The notes under the pieces: model-generated
What the model was told of the DNA's origin: nothing
Database searches by the model: none
What the model saw: the letters and a program-made list of their open reading frames with translations, nothing else
NCBI RefSeq assembly: GCF_003334385.1
Contig: NZ_QOWN01000023.1
Source: Escherichia coli
GTDB lineage: Bacteria; Pseudomonadota; Gammaproteobacteria; Enterobacterales; Enterobacteriaceae
Direction: 5' to 3' (one strand)
Length of the DNA stretch: 64,000 bases
Shown here: piece after piece, positions 22,545-54,434 of the stretch
Position numbering within the stretch: the stretch's first letter is position 1
Layout of the letters: every line of letters begins with the position of its first letter
Position numbers and translations under genes: made by a program

Positions 22545-23321
22545 ATGTCCGAAACAAAAAACGAACTTGAAGACCTGCTGGAAAAAGCAGCAACTGAACC
22601 GGCGCACCGCCCGGCCTTTTTCCGTACTCTACTGGAATCCACCGTCTGGGTGCCTGGTACGGCGGCGCAGGGCGAGGCTGTGGTTGAAGATAGCGCGCTT
22701 GATTTACAGCACTGGGAAAAAGAAGACGGCACCAGCGTCATTCCTTTTTTCACCTCGTTAGAAGCACTTCAACAGGCGGTTGAAGACGAACAGGCATTTG
22801 TCGTAATGCCCGTTCGCACGCTGTTTGAGATGACACTTGGCGAAACGCTCTTCCTTAATGCCAAACTGCCAACCGGTAAAGAATTTATGCCGCGTGAAAT
22901 CAGTTTGTTGATTGGTGAAGAGGGAAATCCGCTGAGCAGCCAGGAAATCCTGGAAGGCGGTGAATCGCTGATATTATCGGAAGTCGCAGAGCCGCCAGCA
23001 CAAATGATTGATTCACTCACCACCTTATTTAAAACCATTAAGCCGGTGAAGCGTGCTTTTATTTGTTCAATTAAAGAGAACGAAGAGGCACAGCCTAATT
23101 TACTTATTGGCATTGAAGCCGATGGTGATATCGAAGAAATTATTCAGGCGACGGGAAGTGTAGCGACCGATACATTACCTGGCGATGAACCAATCGATAT
23201 TTGTCAGGTGAAAAAAGGGGAAAAAGGAATTAGCCACTTTATTACCGAACATATTGCGCCATTCTATGAACGTCGCTGGGGTGGTTTTTTGCGTGACTTT
23301 AAACAGAATCGGATAATCTAA
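22545..23321 (+). CDS. sseB: Enhanced serine sensitivity protein SseB
   Basis: 258 aa from MSETKNELEDLL; gene order pepB-sseB. Confidence 0.88.
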   Translation: MSETKNELEDLLEKAATEPAHRPAFFRTLLESTVWVPGTAAQGEAVVEDSALDLQHWEKEDGTSVIPFFTSLEALQQAVEDEQAFVVMPVRTLFEMTLGETLFLNAKLPTGKEFMPREISLLIGEEGNPLSSQEILEGGESLILSEVAEPPAQMIDSLTTLFKTIKPVKRAFICSIKENEEAQPNLLIGIEADGDIEEIIQATGSVATDTLPGDEPIDICQVKKGEKGISHFITEHIAPFYERRWGGFLRDFKQNRII

Positions 23322-23625
23322 AATATGCCGCCCAAAGGGCGGCATTCGGGCTTACTTGCTGCTCTGAAGGTTGTTAACCACCAGTAAATTGTCGCCGGAG
23401 AGACTCCGGTTATTATTTACCTCGGTTAACAGCGCACCAGAAACAATAAGTACGATACAAAAGCACCGTATCTTCATTGTGCGGTCCATGCGAAGACCGC
23501 ATCACGACAGCACCACTGGCGATATTGCCGCGATAGCAAGCGCTGTGAAACACCTGCATTTACGGCCACGGAACATCCTTTCCTAAAGCCAGCGCCCGTT
23601 TGCGAGACGGCGGAAAGGGCCGCAG
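23318..23625 (-). ncRNA. ryfA: Candidate ~300 nt RNA (RyfA-like), minus strand, carrying small ORFs
   Basis: Minus-strand -10 TATTAT (plus coordinates 23629-23634); GC hairpin 23325-23345 followed on the minus strand by AUUUUAG; span fits the ~300 nt RyfA RNA of the sseA-sseB spacer from memory. Confidence 0.4.
23352..23477 (-). CDS. Candidate small hydrophobic protein (41 aa; 45 aa if started at 23489)
   Basis: MKIRCFCIVLIVSGALLTEVNNNRSLSGDNLLVVNNLQSSK: basic N-terminus plus 15-residue hydrophobic stretch; ends 7 nt before terminator hairpin; no obvious SD; same frame as upstream 24-codon ORF (23502-23576) across a TGA. Confidence 0.3.
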   Translation of the reverse strand: MKIRCFCIVLIVSGALLTEVNNNRSLSGDNLLVVNNLQSSK

Positions 23626-23806
23626 TGGATAATACACTAACAGAACAATAATAACTCTCTTTTGCTTGACAAAAAGAGAGTTACTGGCGAGTATTGTCTC
23701 CGCTGAGACGCGCTTGCATTACTACGGTAATACAACCTGCTGGAAAGGCCGCGAACCGGACCAGCAACAAAAAACCGCCTGATTTTGGCGGTTTTTTGTT
23801 TTTTAA
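23609..23806 (+). repeat. Copy 1 of ~196 bp direct repeat: A/T-stem hairpin containing TTGACA (23666-23671) and a factor-independent terminator (23769-23804); candidate small RNA (RyfB-like)
   Basis: Near-identical core AACTCTCTTTTGCTTGACAAAAAGAGAGTTACTGG and CTGCTGGAAAGGCCGCGAACC shared with copy 2; GC stem plus T-run. Confidence 0.6.
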
Positions 23807-23930
23807 AGGAAAATGAATTTACATGTTTAAGTAATATCTTTTACCGGTTAGAATTTTTAATTTTGAGCAGGATTTGTTTATATTTGTCTGAATTCGGACT
23901 AATAAGCCAGGTTATTTTATTACCGAACAC

Positions 23931-24126
23931 GGCGGAAAGGGCCGGTGTCGATAATACGCTAAATAAACAATAATTACTCTCTTTTGCTTGACAAAAAGAG
24001 AGTTACTGGTGAGTATTGTTTTGCTGTGAAGCACCTGCGTTGCTCATGTAACACAAGTCAACCTGCTGGAAAGGCCGCGAACCAGACTAGCAATAAAAAA
24101 CCGCCAAATTCGGCGGTTTTTTATTG
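23931..24126 (+). repeat. Copy 2 of the same ~196 bp unit (TTGACA 23988-23993; terminator 24095-24123); candidate sibling small RNA (RyfC-like)
   Basis: Offset 322 bp from copy 1; diverged central segment, conserved ends and terminator. Confidence 0.6.
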
Positions 24127-44942: not shown

Positions 44943-46520
44943 ATGACGGAAAACATTCATAAGCATCGCATCCTCATTCTGGACTTCGGTTCTCAGTACA
45001 CTCAACTGGTTGCGCGCCGCGTGCGTGAGCTGGGTGTTTACTGCGAACTGTGGGCGTGGGATGTGACAGAAGCACAAATTCGTGACTTCAATCCAAGCGG
45101 CATTATTCTTTCCGGCGGCCCGGAAAGTACTACTGAAGAAAACAGTCCGCGTGCGCCGCAGTATGTCTTTGAAGCAGGCGTACCGGTATTCGGCGTTTGC
45201 TATGGCATGCAGACCATGGCAATGCAGTTGGGCGGTCACGTTGAAGCCTCTAACGAACGTGAATTTGGCTACGCGCAGGTTGAAGTCGTAAACGACAGCG
45301 CACTGGTTCGCGGTATCGAAGATGCGCTGACCGCAGACGGTAAACCGCTGCTCGATGTCTGGATGAGCCACGGCGATAAAGTTACCGCTATTCCGTCCGA
45401 CTTCATCACCGTAGCCAGCACCGAAAGCTGCCCGTTTGCCATTATGGCTAACGAAGAAAAACGCTTCTATGGCGTACAGTTCCACCCGGAAGTGACTCAC
45501 ACCCGCCAGGGTATGCGCATGCTGGAGCGTTTTGTGTGTGATATCTGCCAGTGTGAAGCCCTGTGGACGCCAGCGAAAATTATCGACGATGCTGTAGCTC
45601 GCATCCGCGAGCAGGTAGGCGACGATAAAGTCATCCTCGGCCTCTCTGGTGGTGTGGATTCCTCCGTAACCGCAATGCTGCTGCACCGCGCTATCGGTAA
45701 AAACCTGACTTGCGTATTCGTCGACAACGGCCTGCTGCGCCTCAACGAAGCAGAGCAGGTTCTGGATATGTTTGGCGATCACTTTGGTCTTAACATTGTT
45801 CACGTACCGGCAGAAGATCGCTTCCTGTCAGCGCTGGCTGGCGAAAACGATCCGGAAGCAAAACGTAAAATCATCGGTCGCGTTTTCGTTGAAGTATTCG
45901 ATGAAGAAGCGCTGAAACTGGAAGACGTGAAGTGGCTGGCGCAGGGCACCATCTACCCTGACGTTATCGAATCTGCGGCGTCTGCAACCGGTAAAGCACA
46001 CGTCATCAAATCTCACCACAACGTGGGCGGCCTGCCGAAAGAGATGAAGATGGGCCTGGTTGAACCGCTGAAAGAGCTGTTCAAAGACGAAGTGCGTAAG
46101 ATTGGTCTGGAGCTGGGCCTGCCGTACGACATGCTGTACCGTCACCCGTTCCCGGGACCAGGCCTTGGCGTTCGTGTTCTGGGTGAAGTGAAGAAAGAGT
46201 ACTGTGACCTGCTGCGCCGTGCTGACGCCATCTTCATTGAAGAACTGCGTAAAGCGGACCTGTACGACAAAGTCAGCCAGGCGTTCACTGTGTTCCTGCC
46301 GGTACGTTCCGTTGGCGTAATGGGCGATGGTCGTAAGTATGACTGGGTTGTCTCTCTGCGTGCTGTCGAAACCATCGACTTTATGACCGCACACTGGGCG
46401 CATCTGCCGTACGATTTCCTCGGTCGCGTTTCCAACCGCATTATCAATGAAGTGAACGGTATTTCCCGCGTGGTGTATGACATCAGCGGCAAGCCGCCAG
46501 CTACCATTGAGTGGGAATGA
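44943..46520 (+). CDS. guaA: GMP synthase (glutamine-hydrolysing)
   Basis: GATase catalytic Cys in GVCYGMQ; ATP-PPase motif SGGVDSSV; 525 aa. Confidence 0.96.
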
Positions 46521-46546
46521 TTTGACCCTGCACTATGAATGAACAA

Positions 46547-46576
46547 AACCCTCTGTTACTACAGAGGGTTTTTTAT
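46547..46576 (+). terminator. Intrinsic terminator after guaA
   Basis: Stem AACCCTCTGT/ACAGAGGGTT followed by TTTT. Confidence 0.75.
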
Positions 46577-46612
46577 CTTCAAGAATTATAGGATTGAAGT
46601 TACTAACATCGA

Positions 46613-47152
46613 TTAATTAAACCAGCTGTCCGATTTGTTCTCTTCTGCTTTGCCCACGCTTTTCATCAGATCGCGACCGCCTTCAGTCATATTTCTGTTG
46701 GCGTCAGCTTCAGATTGCACCACATCGGTTTGCGCAGCTTTGTGCTTCAGTTCCTGATCGATAAATTCGTTTTCTCGCTTAACGCGGGCTTCTTCTTTCG
46801 CCAGCGCCAGTTTTTGTTTCTGAATCTCTAAGCTGCGTAGCTCATCTTCATAACTTTGATCGCGTTTTTTGTCCGCAGAGGCTTCGGCGTCCAGTTTATC
46901 CTGACGAGCTTTCTTATTTGCCGCTGCCGTTGCCGCTCTTTTGTTAGCGGCGGCCTGGGCATTTGCGCGACGTTGCTTCTCTTGCTGGATTTCCCTGTTG
47001 CGCTCCGCGACCCATTCGTCATGCTGCCTTTGCTCTTCATTTTTACCTTGCTGTTCCGCTTCTGCGACAGCAGAGAGTTGATCCTGCAATGATGAGGCGA
47101 TAGCCGGATAGCTTAAGGAGGCTAAGATGGCGCAAAGAAAAACTTTCTTCAT
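46613..47152 (-). CDS. yfgI: Secreted charged coiled-coil protein YfgI
   Basis: Signal peptide MKKVFLCAILASLSYPAIA then Lys/Glu/Gln-rich helical region; 179 aa. Confidence 0.82.
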   Translation of the reverse strand: MKKVFLCAILASLSYPAIASSLQDQLSAVAEAEQQGKNEEQRQHDEWVAERNREIQQEKQRRANAQAAANKRAATAAANKKARQDKLDAEASADKKRDQSYEDELRSLEIQKQKLALAKEEARVKRENEFIDQELKHKAAQTDVVQSEADANRNMTEGGRDLMKSVGKAEENKSDSWFN

Positions 47153-47167
47153 GACTCCTCCTGATTA

Positions 47168-47686
47168 TTAGCTCTTTTCAGGACATTTGGTATTTGGCTG
47201 AATACGCGTTTCGTTATACGTCGTGGTAATAACAACGGCTAAACCTGTCGTAAACTGGCACTCTTTACCCACCTGGGTAGAGGTATACACTTTGGTGCCT
47301 TCCTTATAGGTTAAAGAAACACCTTCCACTAAGGTTTTATCATTCACCATAGAACCCGCTGCCGCGCCTACAGCTCCGCCGCCAACTGCACCTGCCGTCG
47401 TTCCGGAATTGCTGCCAGACCCGACGTTGTGGCCGATAACACCGCCAGCGACTGCGCCAATAAGCGCGCCGAAGGCTTGTGCGTTCCGTTTATTTTGGGA
47501 GTTGTCTACGGCAACTTTTGCGGGAAGAATGGAAATAATATTAACGGTTTTAGTTTCTTGTTTGGTATTCAGTTGATCGGTTTGATAAACATCGGCAGCA
47601 TGATCGTCAGCATTTGACTGGCATCCTGCCAGAGTGAATGACGCTAACATTGCCACAGGCAGAAGACATTTTTTAAATTTCATCAC
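47168..47686 (-). CDS. yfgH: Lipoprotein with glycine-zipper segment YfgH
   Basis: Lipobox LAGC; Gly-rich tract GALIGAVAGGVIGHNVGSGSNSGTTAGAVGGGAVGAAAGS; 172 aa. Confidence 0.82.
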   Translation of the reverse strand: MMKFKKCLLPVAMLASFTLAGCQSNADDHAADVYQTDQLNTKQETKTVNIISILPAKVAVDNSQNKRNAQAFGALIGAVAGGVIGHNVGSGSNSGTTAGAVGGGAVGAAAGSMVNDKTLVEGVSLTYKEGTKVYTSTQVGKECQFTTGLAVVITTTYNETRIQPNTKCPEKS

Positions 47687-47996
47687 TATTCCTTGTTATA
47701 CACATTACGAAAAATAAGACATTTAAGATCATCAAAAGAGGAAAGTAAATGTATTGCGTATAAAGGGATAGATTAAATTTATTAAAATTCACGCAGGGAA
47801 TAATTTATAAAAATATATCATTACAACATATATATTAATTTTATATTTATTTCGCAGCCAAACAGGATAAACATCAGTCAGGATAAAGACGTAAAATTTA
47901 AGATGAAAGAATATCTGCCGCTTTGATAATCCCAAACAGCAAAAGCATCCGACAGCGAAGTGCCGTTATGTTCTGTGAAAGTGGAGAAGGTAACCG

Positions 47997-48188
47997 CTAA
48001 CGTTGTACCGGTGATTCGACGGAGAGTGTGGATTGCTGAGCTTCTTTTTTGCTCTGATGGTGCTGCCAGGCACCGACGGACGAGTAGATAAAACGGCCAA
48101 AGAAGAAGATAAAGCTGATGAGCAGTACGATACGGGTCATGCGACTGTTAAATCGGTGTCGTTTTCGCATACTGGTTGCCTGACTCAC
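47997..48188 (-). CDS. yfgG: Small membrane protein YfgG
   Basis: 63 aa with one hydrophobic helix (IVLLISFIFFFGRFIY); in AT-rich spacer. Confidence 0.65.
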   Translation of the reverse strand: MSQATSMRKRHRFNSRMTRIVLLISFIFFFGRFIYSSVGAWQHHQSKKEAQQSTLSVESPVQR

Positions 48189-48398
48189 AAAAGGTTCCTT
48201 GAAGTATGTCCCACGCTGTGGACGGTACTTACATTAAGGCACAACAGGACAAAATGGTCAATTCTTCGTTATGTAAAAAAGCGTCAGTGGATACATATTT
48301 TAATGTTATGGAAGTTAATTTAATTATTTACAATGATGATGTAATAATGATGAATTAACATGATAAACGTAATAATTCATTAATCAGGGTTATTTTGT

Positions 48399-48412
48399 TT
48401 GATATATATCAA
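48399..48412 (+). promoter_or_regulatory. FNR-type binding site, perfect consensus half-sites TTGAT-N4-ATCAA
   Basis: TTGATATATATCAA, ~128 bp upstream of pdeF ATG; TAGAAT -10-like hexamer at 48434-48439 gives a class II arrangement. Confidence 0.6.
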
Positions 48413-48539
48413 TTGGTACTTTCATATGACACTTAGAATCAATGCTCTCTATAGTGATGAATAATCATCATTCGAAGTCAGGTGGGATGCCTGTCTGAAT
48501 ACACCTCCTTCAGGATGTGGGGGATTCTGCTGAGCATCT

Positions 48540-50783
48540 ATGAAACTGAATGCAACTTATATAAAAATACGTGATAAATGGTGGGGGCTTCCGCTGTTCC
48601 TGCCTTCTTTAATCTTGCCCATTTTCGCCCACATTAATACTTTCGCGCATATTTCTTCCGGTGAGGTTTTTCTCTTTTATCTGCCTCTGGCACTGATGAT
48701 CAGCATGATGATGTTTTTCAGCTGGGCGGCATTGCCAGGGATCGCCTTAGGGATTTTTGTCCGCAAATATGCAGAGCTGGGTTTTTACGAAACGCTATCA
48801 TTAACGGCTAATTTTATTATCATTATCATTCTCTGTTGGGGCGGTTACAGGGTCTTTACTCCCCGGCGTAACAACGTTTCACATGGTGATACCCGTTTAA
48901 TTTCCCAGCGTATATTCTGGCAGATTGTGTTTCCTGCAACGCTGTTTCTGATACTTTTCCAGTTTGCTGCATTTGTAGGATTACTGGCGAGCAGAGAAAA
49001 TCTGGTCGGTGTCATGCCTTTTAACCTAGGGACTTTAATCAATTATCAGGCCTTACTGGTGGGTAATCTGATCGGTGTCCCGCTGTGCTACTTCATCATT
49101 CGGGTAGTGCGAAATCCATTTTATTTACGTAGCTATTATTCGCAATTAAAACAGCAGGTTGATGCCAAAGTCACCAAAAAAGAGTTCGCGCTCTGGCTAC
49201 TGGCATTAGGTGCTTTATTGTTGCTGTTATGCATGCCGTTAAATGAAAAAAGCACAATTTTTAGCACCAATTATACCTTGTCATTATTGCTGCCCCTGAT
49301 GATGTGGGGAGCGATGCGCTATGGTTATAAGCTGATTTCGCTGCTCTGGGCGGTCGTGTTGATGATCAGCATCCACAGCTATCAAAATTACATTCCCATT
49401 TATCCTGGCTATACCACGCAGCTGACCATAACCTCCTCCAGTTATCTGGTATTCTCTTTTATTGTCAATTATATGGCTGTACTGGCAACCCGTCAGAGAG
49501 CGGTAGTCAGACGCATTCAGCGGCTTGCGTATGTGGACCCGGTGGTTCATCTGCCAAATGTTCGCGCCCTGAATCGCGCGTTGCGTGATGCCCCCTGGTC
49601 TGCGCTTTGTTATTTACGCATCCCTGGCATGGAAATGCTGGTTAAGAACTATGGCATCATGCTGCGGATTCAATACAAGCAAAAACTTTCTCACTGGCTG
49701 TCACCCTTGCTGGAACCGGGTGAAGATGTTTATCAGCTTTCGGGTAACGATCTCGCGCTGCGACTGAATACAGAATCGCACCAGGAGCGCATTACCGCAC
49801 TGGATAGCCATCTCAAGCAATTTCGTTTCTTTTGGGATGGCATGCCGATGCAACCGCAGATTGGCGTCAGTTACTGCTATGTGCGCTCGCCAGTGAATCA
49901 TATCTACCTGCTGCTGGGAGAGCTAAATACGGTCGCCGAACTTTCCATCGTGACCAACGCCCCGGAAAATATGCAGCGTCGCGGGGCAATGTATTTGCAA
50001 CGCGAATTGAAAGATAAAGTCGCGATGATGAATCGACTACAGCAGGCGCTGGAACACAACCATTTTTTCCTGATGGCCCAGCCGATTACCGGTATGCGTG
50101 GTGATGTTTACCATGAAATTCTTCTGCGCATGAAAGGTGAGAATGATGAACTGATCAGCCCCGATAGCTTCTTGCCGGTCGCGCACGAATTTGGTTTATC
50201 GTCGAGTATCGACATGTGGGTCATTGAGCATACGCTGCAGTTTATGGCTGAAAACAGAGCGAAGATGCCCGCTCACCGTTTTGCTATTAATCTGTCTCCA
50301 ACCTCGGTATGTCAGGCTCGTTTTCCTGTTGAAGTCAGTCAGTTGCTGGCTAAATATCAGATTGAAGCGTGGCAACTTATTTTTGAAGTCACCGAAAGTA
50401 ATGCTCTGACCAATGTTAAGCAGGCGCAAATCACCTTGCAGCATCTTCAGGAATTAGGCTGCCAGATTGCGATTGATGATTTCGGCACCGGCTACGCCAG
50501 CTATGCGCGGCTTAAAAATGTGAATGCCGATCTGCTTAAAATTGACGGCAGTTTTATCCGCAATATTGTGTCAAATAGTCTGGATTATCAGATAGTGGCA
50601 TCGATTTGCCACCTGGCGCGAATGAAGAAAATGCTGGTAGTGGCAGAGTACGTTGAAAACGAAGAGATCCGCGAGGCGGTGCTCTCTTTGGGGATCGATT
50701 ATATGCAGGGTTATCTTATTGGTAAGCCGCAGCCGTTAATTGATACGCTGAATGAAATCGAACCCATTCGCGAAAGTGCCTGA
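48540..50783 (+). CDS. pdeF: Membrane c-di-GMP phosphodiesterase (MASE1 - degenerate GGDEF - EAL)
   Basis: N-terminal multi-TM region; degenerate GGDEF position (SGNDL); EAL-type motif EILLR and DDFGTGYAS; 747 aa. Confidence 0.92.
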   Translation: MKLNATYIKIRDKWWGLPLFLPSLILPIFAHINTFAHISSGEVFLFYLPLALMISMMMFFSWAALPGIALGIFVRKYAELGFYETLSLTANFIIIIILCWGGYRVFTPRRNNVSHGDTRLISQRIFWQIVFPATLFLILFQFAAFVGLLASRENLVGVMPFNLGTLINYQALLVGNLIGVPLCYFIIRVVRNPFYLRSYYSQLKQQVDAKVTKKEFALWLLALGALLLLLCMPLNEKSTIFSTNYTLSLLLPLMMWGAMRYGYKLISLLWAVVLMISIHSYQNYIPIYPGYTTQLTITSSSYLVFSFIVNYMAVLATRQRAVVRRIQRLAYVDPVVHLPNVRALNRALRDAPWSALCYLRIPGMEMLVKNYGIMLRIQYKQKLSHWLSPLLEPGEDVYQLSGNDLALRLNTESHQERITALDSHLKQFRFFWDGMPMQPQIGVSYCYVRSPVNHIYLLLGELNTVAELSIVTNAPENMQRRGAMYLQRELKDKVAMMNRLQQALEHNHFFLMAQPITGMRGDVYHEILLRMKGENDELISPDSFLPVAHEFGLSSSIDMWVIEHTLQFMAENRAKMPAHRFAINLSPTSVCQARFPVEVSQLLAKYQIEAWQLIFEVTESNALTNVKQAQITLQHLQELGCQIAIDDFGTGYASYARLKNVNADLLKIDGSFIRNIVSNSLDYQIVASICHLARMKKMLVVAEYVENEEIREAVLSLGIDYMQGYLIGKPQPLIDTLNEIEPIRESA

Positions 50784-50821: not shown

Positions 50822-54434
<3,613 letters not shown>

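Follow-up and report, generated by a model that had tools for sequence, protein, structure and literature searches.

Recent work has shown lipoproteins of the SlyB type to be organisers of the outer membrane that are induced by stress, and SlyB itself forms rings around BamA and lipid nanodomains (PDB 7OJF/7OJG). TraT, the surface-exclusion and serum-resistance lipoprotein of F-like plasmids, forms decamers (9FS5, 9FSM and 9E2V), while Braun's lipoprotein, Lpp, is an elongated helical periplasmic protein that sets or spans distances within the envelope. Here we compare with these systems a locus on a 64,000-nucleotide (nt) stretch of Escherichia coli DNA (assembly GCF_003334385.1, contig NZ_QOWN01000023.1; the whole stretch is referred to below as the window), in which three genes, yfgI, yfgH and yfgG, lie between guaA and pdeF. 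An earlier analysis made from the letters alone (the sequence-only reading) had treated them as a single silenced module. On balance, we favour a different view, i.e., that the interval holds two independent units: an outer-membrane cassette composed of yfgH and yfgI, and yfgG, which is unrelated to it.

The finding is ordinary in kind, in that the genes are annotated, two of them have published phenotypes and one is the subject of a recent mechanistic preprint; the mechanism proposed below for YfgI is one that we infer. What is added here is the association of YfgI with YfgH, the mobile nature of the cassette, and the grouping of yfgG with pdeF.

YfgH has been studied as a second example of a SlyB-type lipoprotein, and as a lone protein. 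In a preprint of December 2025 it was localized to the outer membrane by fractionation, and deletion of yfgH caused sensitivity to sodium dodecyl sulfate (SDS) and ethylenediaminetetraacetic acid (EDTA), higher permeability and loss of outer-membrane proteins. YfgH co-purified with BamA, LptD and porins, extra YfgH rescued depletion of BamA and LptD, and mutations in clsA, i.e., affecting cardiolipin, suppressed the deletion. The same preprint presents AlphaFold3 oligomer models and pull-downs, which it describes itself as not being strong biochemical evidence. A genetic map from 2011 had reported an aggravating interaction between yfgH and lptD. The only phenotype that we found for yfgI is that survival of a mutant on nalidixic acid was 7% of wild type, compared with 98% on kasugamycin and 74% on ampicillin; databases list YfgI as "nalidixic acid resistance protein". 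Finally, gain- and loss-of-function screens showed that yfgG is necessary and sufficient for tolerance of nickel and cobalt, since deletion sensitises cells and over-expression protects them, and in Dub-seq the nickel phenotype mapped to yfgG rather than yfgH. With the YfgH preprint, the lptD interaction and the yfgG and yfgI phenotypes in hand, the statement of the sequence-only reading that the functions are essentially unknown is out of date.

Results

yfgH and yfgI Occur as a Pair

In the window, yfgH (47168-47686, 172 amino acids) and yfgI (46613-47152, 179 amino acids) lie on the minus strand, with the list of open reading frames (ORFs) and the RefSeq annotation in agreement on both. They are separated by a junction of only 15 nt (47153..47167, minus strand), in which an AGGAGG, read from the sequence, stands just upstream of the yfgI ATG. 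The two genes are listed as an operon, yfgHI, in PMC9962212 and PMC11619404.

The pairing was examined from both sides. Starting from YfgI, we scanned one genome per species using an alignment of the protein as query; because the family alignment described below (A2, 31 sequences) was too diverse for scanning genomes, a smaller one (A3) was used. This gave 43 loci, 40 of them with enough upstream DNA, and in all 40 a YfgH homologue was found immediately upstream on the same strand. The intergenic gap in related loci was 0-15 nt, or else the genes overlapped. These loci came from Escherichia, Pseudocitrobacter, Citrobacter, Kluyvera, Xenorhabdus, Pantoea, Ewingella, Pseudomonas, Haemophilus, Avibacterium, alpha- and beta-proteobacteria, and the methanotrophs of the Methylococcales. 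Three metagenome loci in which YfgI was only 33-37% identical had the same arrangement, with YfgH upstream.

Starting from YfgH, we scanned metagenomes for the motif ETRIQPN, which yielded 60 YfgH-type ORFs (42 clusters at 90% identity), 54 of which were testable. A canonical YfgI lay directly downstream of 46 of the 54, a divergent ORF encoding a secreted, charged helical protein lay downstream of a further 4, and in another 2 a marginal match to the YfgI core was fused to the C-terminus of YfgH. Ten loci that at first appeared to carry YfgH without YfgI were inspected singly, and in eight of them a partner was identified, whether canonical, divergent or fused. The fusion candidates (L192 212-1036 and L228 1358-2203, both from metagenomes) are two related proteins of ~280 amino acids consisting of a complete YfgH-like lipoprotein with a C-terminal extension; judged by their sequences, they may be natural YfgH-YfgI fusions.

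Plasmids gave a matching picture, with YfgH found in 205 records of a plasmid collection and YfgI in 200, and with a nearly identical breakdown by organism. Clustering of neighbouring ORFs revealed no third family common to distant yfgHI loci, the neighbours being as unrelated as allantoinase, iolD, def, glycogen phosphorylase, pntA and an IS5 transposase. A scan of IMG/VR with YfgH did not provide an independent test of the pairing, because nearly all of the matches were E. coli prophage predictions that ran into the host yfgI-yfgH genes. No paper linking YfgH and YfgI was found in the literature, and no paper at all came up in a full-text search for DUF5384 (the YfgI family) or for the names of the corresponding genes of the phage-plasmid P7. 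Thus, while all three genes were already annotated, the observation that YfgI nearly always accompanies a SlyB-like YfgH is a new association.

YfgH Is a Paralogue of SlyB

The sequence-only reading had described YfgH as a glycine-zipper lipoprotein, and this holds. It has the lipobox LAGC22, the cysteine of which is invariant across our alignment of homologues (A4), and it matches the Pfam family PF05433 (Gly-zipper 2TM; E = 7e-8). In the glycine zipper, G77, G81, G103, G107 and G111 are invariant in A4, and the model places helices at residues 63-88 and 93-112. All homologues in A4 also share, in a C-terminal beta domain, a pair of cysteines (Cys143/Cys168) and the motif E159-T-R-x-Q-P-N165. 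YfgH scored below the cut-off of every NCBIfam model that it matched, including those for glycine-zipper lipoproteins.

A phmmer search related residues 8-164 of YfgH to SlyB (7ojf; E = 3.9e-10), and in that alignment Cys143, Cys168 and the ETRxQPN motif were all missing from SlyB. An AlphaFold2 model built with 26 homologues had a mean predicted local distance difference test score (pLDDT) of only 70. When this model was searched using Foldseek, the top solved structure was again SlyB (7ojf_A; E = 3e-9, probability 1.00, template modelling (TM) scores 0.53/0.62). Similarity to TraT was much weaker: Foldseek matches to the decamers had E values of 0.008-0.03 and TM scores of 0.31/0.25, representing poor superposition, and by sequence YfgH matched the TraT family (PF05818) with E = 2.5e-6 over only positions 78-172 of the 214 in the model, and TraT chains in the PDB with E values of 0.002-0.14. 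YfgH is a paralogue of SlyB and not its orthologue. It is also the better conserved member of the pair, its homologue in Xenorhabdus being 71% identical compared with 52% for YfgI.

Both PHROGs and phage records in RefSeq misname homologues of YfgH as "DNA methyltransferase" (e.g., upf50.5 of P7, L049 3476-3997, and L050 2355-2870), which is a propagated error. We rejected this label, which phrog_1277 carries, because the protein is a glycine-zipper lipoprotein with no methyltransferase domain. The matches to phrog_1094 and phrog_1277 most likely trace to the host flanks of prophage contigs and to P7.

YfgI Is a Secreted, Charged Protein Predicted to Be a Single Long Helix

YfgI matches PF17358 (DUF5384) with E = 9e-62 over the whole model (positions 1-145 of 145), a family that comprises 252 representative clusters among 1.84 billion proteins. 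No NCBIfam model matched it, and a sequence search of the PDB found no related solved structure. The protein has a signal peptide of the AXA type, and 39% of the mature part consists of D, E, K or R. The family alignment (A2) shows a layout of the signal peptide, an SLQDQLSAV motif directly past the predicted cleavage site, a variable middle rich in charged residues and alanine, and a conserved C-terminal core (residues ~94-178) that mostly ends in W-F plus one residue (W-F-N in E. coli).

AlphaFold2 folded YfgI as one continuous helix from residue 20 to residue 177 (mean pLDDT 87; pLDDT >90 for 111 residues). If it exists as a single helix of ~158 residues, the model predicts that it would span roughly 24 nm. 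The N-terminal half contains neither conserved hydrophobic positions nor a hydrophobic heptad pattern, and for that reason it resembles a charged single helix rather than a coiled coil; the core does have conserved hydrophobic positions, yet no clean heptad pattern. Of the sequence-only description of YfgI as a secreted, charged coiled-coil protein, the secretion and the charge are borne out, while a coiled coil suits the N-terminal half less well than a single helix does.

YfgI is polymorphic in length. E. coli alleles of 179, 177, 175, 173, 172 and 170 amino acids differ only by in-frame insertions or deletions in an alanine-rich tract, ANAQAAANKRAATAAANKKA (residues 63-82; ~46907-46966 in the window), which is encoded by repetitive, GC-rich codons. 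Rarer variants alter the ends of the protein. A transmembrane helix and a lysine-rich tail are added at the C-terminus in 2 of 105 family representatives, one of which is preceded by a YfgH gene, and a single protein of 409 amino acids fuses the YfgI core to a long coiled coil, with no YfgH gene upstream. A common gene call, P0056 (169 amino acids, 724 contigs, O145:H28 in its name), begins in a different frame and merges with the YfgI sequence from residue 26. From a reconstruction by hand, it looks like a yfgI allele in which a deletion of 7 nt has cut the signal peptide from the mature part (residues 20-24, ~47080-47095).

yfgHI Is a Mobile Cassette

P7 and P1-like phage-plasmids carry relatives of both proteins, upf50.5 (67% identity to YfgH) and upf50.0 (47.5% to YfgI), whose genes separate the immunity region (c4/icd/ant) from the late promoter that serves the tail operon. 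A P7-like pair was present in ~185 "plasmid" records of roughly 55-150 kb, and in E. coli and Salmonella the pair was also found on mobilisable plasmids of the ColE1 type (3.9-7.5 kb). On one of these, the 7.5-kb E. coli plasmid CP056397.1 (L051 3593-6967), a divergent gene resembling phosphoethanolamine transferases lies just upstream of the YfgH/YfgI-like pair. Its best NCBIfam match was CptA, with 118 bits against a cut-off of 404; it scored under all cut-offs, and is not an MCR. Several near-identical plasmids of ~7.5 kb exist. Together with the patchy distribution and the differing chromosomal sites, the plasmid and phage-plasmid copies bear out a horizontal origin, which applies to yfgHI only and not to yfgG: yfgHI is a horizontally mobile cassette of two genes, carried by phage-plasmids and small plasmids.

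The cassette also decays. At both Salmonella enterica loci examined (L052 and L053 5326-6281), which occupy the same chromosomal site as in E. coli, yfgH is split over two frames. This fits the annotation of the Typhi yfgH orthologue as a pseudogene, and the absence of the pair from Typhimurium (PMC11619404).

yfgG Is a Separate Unit That Belongs with pdeF

The third gene, yfgG (47997-48188, minus strand; ORF list and RefSeq in agreement), encodes 63 amino acids with a basic N-terminus and one hydrophobic stretch (residues ~20-41), as the sequence-only reading had it in calling it a small membrane protein with a single helix. DUF2633 (PF11119; E = 4e-28) was the sole family match, no NCBIfam model being hit. 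Pfam profile searches thus left all three proteins as envelope proteins with generic or DUF-level annotation, again as had been proposed. In alignment A1, a G-A-W-x-H-H-Q sequence directly past the hydrophobic stretch is invariant; within it, W-x-H-H-Q is no more than a lead. Among 475 relatives, the best 120 were all from Enterobacteriaceae with at least 71% identity, save for one metagenome-assembled genome labelled Acinetobacter.

The placing of yfgG in one module with yfgI and yfgH failed the co-occurrence check. Whereas the yfgHI pair was present at 40 of 40 testable loci, yfgG adjoins it only in close relatives of E. coli, i.e., in Escherichia, Citrobacter and Pseudocitrobacter, and in Salmonella it lies beside the decaying copy; in Klebsiella, Enterobacter and Atlantibacter yfgG is present without yfgHI. 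By contrast, yfgG was divergent from the gene for a MASE1-EAL protein, i.e., pdeF, in every genus examined. The block ppk-ppx-pdeF with divergent yfgG is kept in Salmonella, Klebsiella aerogenes, Atlantibacter and Enterobacter hormaechei, and the cargo between yfgG and guaA in these four is an iron-type ABC transporter; LysR, MFS and Phd antitoxin genes; TetR and aldo-keto reductase genes; or a MipA-type gene with a two-component system. Because the cargo differs from genus to genus, this interval is a hotspot for cargo, of which yfgHI is the occupant in the Escherichia-Citrobacter group. In a Citrobacter-like genome (L012 4309-5187), a gene for a membrane protein of 292 amino acids lies between yfgG and yfgH, which suggests that cargo can enter on either side of the cassette; by eye only, that protein resembles a small mechanosensitive channel. 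We conclude that yfgG belongs with pdeF, as a transcription unit separate from yfgHI.

Gene Order and Flanks of the Locus

The three genes have exactly the coordinates and order that had been claimed for them. They are flanked by guaA (44943-46520, plus strand) on one side, and by pdeF (48540-50783, plus strand) and ppx (50822-52402, minus strand) on the other, with the ORF list and RefSeq agreeing on each. Between the convergent guaA and yfgI genes, a terminator scan found a GC-rich hairpin of 12 pairs followed by a T-run on the plus strand (46545..46572). Read on the minus strand, it lies 40 nt past the yfgI stop codon, and it is likely, on its sequence, to be a bidirectional terminator. The window is E. 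coli K-12 DNA, and its segment 46400-48700 is 100% identical to that of K-12 strain J53, in which RefSeq carries the names yfgI, yfgH and yfgG. As a query this segment had matches in every complete E. coli genome (5426/5426), and 5400 of these carried 80% or more of its length. PADLOC, with 5027 defence-system models, gave no match to YfgI, YfgH or YfgG.

RefSeq also carries a PGAP "hypothetical protein" of 50 amino acids inside the spacer between yfgG and pdeF (48206-48358, plus strand). Stop codons interrupt it in Citrobacter, Salmonella, Pseudocitrobacter and Klebsiella, amino-acid identity within Escherichia (82-90%) is lower than nucleotide identity (93-97%), and there was no match to an NCBIfam family. 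Judging by these sequence comparisons, it is probably not a gene.

The guaA side of the locus is a prophage attachment site. Prophages of ~40 kb that resemble phage TL-2011b integrate next to yfgI, at the 3' end of guaA (~46506-46612, which takes in the final 15 nt of guaA). In 80 of 80 IMG/VR contigs, identity to the host ended 107 nt past yfgI (104 nt in one), and was followed by phage genes for Rz, endolysin and holin; the GenBank record of TL-2011b takes in yfgI, yfgH, yfgG and part of pdeF from the host. Some E. coli genomes break the query at this attachment point, and K-12 has no prophage there.

The AT-Rich Spacers Are Probable Control Regions

The sequence-only reading had placed the genes in an AT-rich island. 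This is correct for the two spacers, which had GC contents of 0.306 (spacer 1, 47687-47996) and 0.342 (spacer 2, 48189-48539), compared with 0.522 (standard deviation 0.045) for the mean of 300-bp windows, and which were the only places in the 64 kb where GC fell below 0.35; this AT-richness exceeds what chance would give in the window. It is not correct for the coding sequences of yfgI, yfgH and yfgG (GC 0.47-0.495). Spacer 1 contains the lowest-GC 300 bp of the whole window. The sole other place in which the GC content of 300 bp fell below 0.38 was 23621-24110, which is intergenic, the ORFs there ending at 23321 and 24139. An Rfam scan of 46400-48700 at E values up to 1 gave only a chance match to a long non-coding RNA, and no known RNA element in the spacers.

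Spacer 1 precedes yfgHI, whose promoter it must hold, and follows the 3' end of yfgG, where there is a weak hairpin (47965-47950). On the minus strand we saw only weak matches resembling sigma-70 promoters; the motif scan gave a single weak FNR-like site and was negative for PhoP, CpxR, sigma-E, RcsB and SdiA boxes. The spacer evolves fast, with 73-86% identity among Escherichia species and no similarity outside that genus. Upstream of yfgH, the 9-mer CAGGATAAA occurs twice, 16 nt apart (47863-47887), and there is an imperfect 24-nt repeat at 47858-47881 and 47932-47955. These repeats matched no known regulator motif and may be due to chance. A yfgHI reporter from E. coli was not regulated by SdiA, unlike the Typhi orthologue (PMC11619404).

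Spacer 2 is the divergent control region of yfgG and pdeF, and was 89-97% identical within Escherichia and 71-73% in Citrobacter and Salmonella. A promoter scan located the pdeF promoter in it, ATGACA-18-TATAGT at 48426-48455 on the plus strand, which is identical to the yfgF promoter of PMC3946193. That paper reports sigma-70 promoters for both genes in this spacer, and flags a yfgG promoter and an H-NS site from genomic SELEX (systematic evolution of ligands by exponential enrichment) there as well. A sigma-S chromatin immunoprecipitation (ChIP) peak and a PgrR SELEX target have also been reported in spacer 2, where the holoenzymes with sigma-70 and sigma-S bind. For spacer 1, no H-NS data were found in the literature, a search that did not cover the supplementary ChIP data of two H-NS papers.

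Both AT-rich spacers attract insertion sequences (IS elements). A pair of IS1 elements is inserted in spacer 1, between yfgH and yfgG, in strain TA8571, and an IS5 insertion in the yfgF/yfgG spacer reached 50% in one gallium-evolved population. The H-NS SELEX site between yfgG and pdeF agrees with the proposal that nucleoid proteins silence the locus, but silencing is not supported: YfgH and YfgI have been detected in proteomes, so that the locus is not silent, and the sigma-70 and sigma-S holoenzymes occupy spacer 2.

Discussion

A Model for YfgH and YfgI

We propose that YfgH, held by its lipid anchor, would insert a glycine-zipper hairpin into the outer membrane and place its beta domain in the periplasm. 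By analogy with SlyB, and in line with the preprint data, it would assemble around outer-membrane proteins and lipids, stabilising the membrane under stress. YfgI would be exported by the Sec pathway to serve as a dedicated periplasmic partner of YfgH, in the form of a very long charged helix. Its C-terminal core would most likely dock on the surface of YfgH formed by Cys143-Cys168 and ETRxQPN, while the variable, length-polymorphic N-terminal half would project into the periplasm. The reason for choosing this surface is that the clade of lipoproteins that carries it is the one that comes with YfgI. Full barrier function would then take both proteins. Mutants with a defective outer-membrane barrier are hypersensitive to hydrophobic quinolones, and we accordingly read the sensitivity of the yfgI mutant to nalidixic acid as a permeability defect, rather than one in DNA repair. 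YfgG would be a small inner-membrane protein specific to the Enterobacteriaceae, its N-terminus probably cytoplasmic, that acts in nickel and cobalt tolerance and has no functional tie to yfgHI. The AT-rich spacers would be the control regions of the two units.

Several observations count against this model. The preprint mentions YfgI nowhere, pull-down and mass spectrometry results included, and in that study YfgH expressed alone from a plasmid complemented the yfgH deletion, with the chromosomal yfgI still present. Two of the 54 testable YfgH-type genes lacked any partner. The C-terminal ends of the two fusion candidates matched the YfgI core with E values of only 0.003 and 0.012 among 5357 ORFs, which is marginal, as charged helices draw spurious matches. 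The pair also decays unevenly: yfgI is intact in one of the two Salmonella loci, and reduced in the other to 27 codons, followed by the iron-type ABC transporter. If our reading of P0056 is right, yfgI has been inactivated in a large lineage in which yfgH is intact. From this uneven decay, YfgI may be dispensable in some lineages.

Alternative Explanations

The reading with which this study began, i.e., that yfgI, yfgH and yfgG belong to one module of small proteins, silenced by nucleoid proteins and with an unknown function, now seems very improbable, having been largely refuted by synteny. The genes are indeed adjacent, on the same strand, and all encode envelope proteins, and the extreme AT-richness of the spacers, the H-NS SELEX site and the IS1 and IS5 insertions would suit it. 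However, yfgG is not beside yfgHI outside Escherichia, Citrobacter, Pseudocitrobacter and Salmonella, is found without yfgHI in Klebsiella, Enterobacter and Atlantibacter, and lacks an intact pair beside it in Salmonella; the 310-bp spacer with its hairpin parts the two units; the phenotypes differ, concerning metals for yfgG and the outer-membrane barrier for yfgH and yfgI; and the proteins are expressed. We give just as little credence to the idea that YfgI acts alone in the response to DNA damage, its adjacency to yfgH being incidental. A phyletic-profile prediction and the 7% survival on nalidixic acid speak for it, but YfgI has a cleavable signal peptide, no DNA-related domain, and a gene that nearly always lies behind one for an outer-membrane lipoprotein. 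The SdiA-regulated yfgHI orthologues of Salmonella were not linked to sensitivity to nalidixic acid or ultraviolet light (PMC11619404), and a barrier defect would be expected to give just such a phenotype, confined to a single drug that is a hydrophobic quinolone.

A third alternative, which we regard as unlikely, is that yfgHI is an accessory of mobile elements like TraT, acting in surface or superinfection exclusion or in serum resistance, with the chromosomal copy a domesticated remnant. The similarity of YfgH to the TraT decamers is weak and consistent, in P7-like phage-plasmids the pair is flanked by the immunity region and the late tail operon, it occurs in ~200 plasmid records, small mobilisable ColE1-type plasmids included, one metagenome copy has a HigBA toxin-antitoxin pair on one side and an EcoRII-type restriction system on the other, and its spread across the Proteobacteria is patchy. 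The similarity to SlyB is, however, far stronger than that to TraT, and neither protein matched any of the 5027 defence-system models. The pair is also core in E. coli (5400/5426) and has housekeeping genes as neighbours in Pseudomonas, Haemophilus and Avibacterium, deletion of yfgH causes envelope defects with no phage or plasmid involved, and the phosphoethanolamine-transferase-like neighbour on one plasmid points instead to remodelling of the outer membrane. A bolder form of our own proposal, which we hold to be a little less probable than the TraT-like role, is that YfgI is a structural subunit: a rod of ~24 nm held by its conserved core on a SlyB-like YfgH assembly and spanning much of the periplasm in the direction of the cell wall or inner membrane as a strut, a tether or a guide for lipid traffic, so that the pair would be a portable cassette for hardening the outer membrane, disseminated by phage-plasmids and small plasmids. 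Such a strut could fit the suppression of the yfgH deletion by mutations in clsA, which encodes a cardiolipin synthase. The variants with a C-terminal transmembrane helix (2/105) hint at contact with a membrane, and the marginal fusions at contact with YfgH.

Implications

We return to the proposal of an outer-membrane cassette beside an unrelated yfgG. If YfgI is an obligate partner of YfgH, then over-expression, pull-downs and oligomer models confined to YfgH miss half of the system, and the name "nalidixic acid resistance protein" would be misleading about the biology of YfgI. Being carried on P7-like phage-plasmids and small plasmids, the cassette may represent a transferable trait for envelope robustness or drug permeability in the Enterobacteriaceae. 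Parting yfgG from yfgHI centres the question of nickel and cobalt on yfgG and its constant neighbour, pdeF.

Comparison with Known Systems

The closest of the described systems is SlyB, with which YfgH shares the lipobox, the two-helix glycine zipper and the C-terminal beta domain, in a match over the full length. According to the preprint, cells lacking one or the other protein become sensitive to SDS and EDTA, and BamA, LptD and porins co-purify with each of them, whereas the suppressors of yfgH deletion lie in clsA and not in the Mla pathway. YfgH also differs from SlyB in having the cysteine pair and the ETRxQPN motif, which SlyB lacks, and in being nearly always accompanied by a downstream yfgI. 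To our knowledge, slyB has no comparable partner gene.

Like TraT, YfgH is an outer-membrane lipoprotein borne by mobile elements, with a helical membrane hairpin and a weak match in both sequence and fold, the similarity extending over only part of TraT. We know of no partner protein for TraT and of no exclusion phenotype for YfgH. YfgI recalls rods of the Lpp type in being, by prediction, all-helical and rod-like, and in varying in length through insertions and deletions in a spacer-like tract, but unlike Lpp it lacks both a lipid anchor and a C-terminal lysine through which peptidoglycan could be attached, and ends instead in W-F-N. Finally, although YfgG has no sequence relation to any characterised family, it can be compared in function with small single-pass proteins that modulate larger membrane proteins and with the RcnA/RcnB nickel-cobalt system: it is a single-pass protein of 63 amino acids with a nickel/cobalt phenotype, and its gene always lies beside that of a membrane sensor, pdeF.

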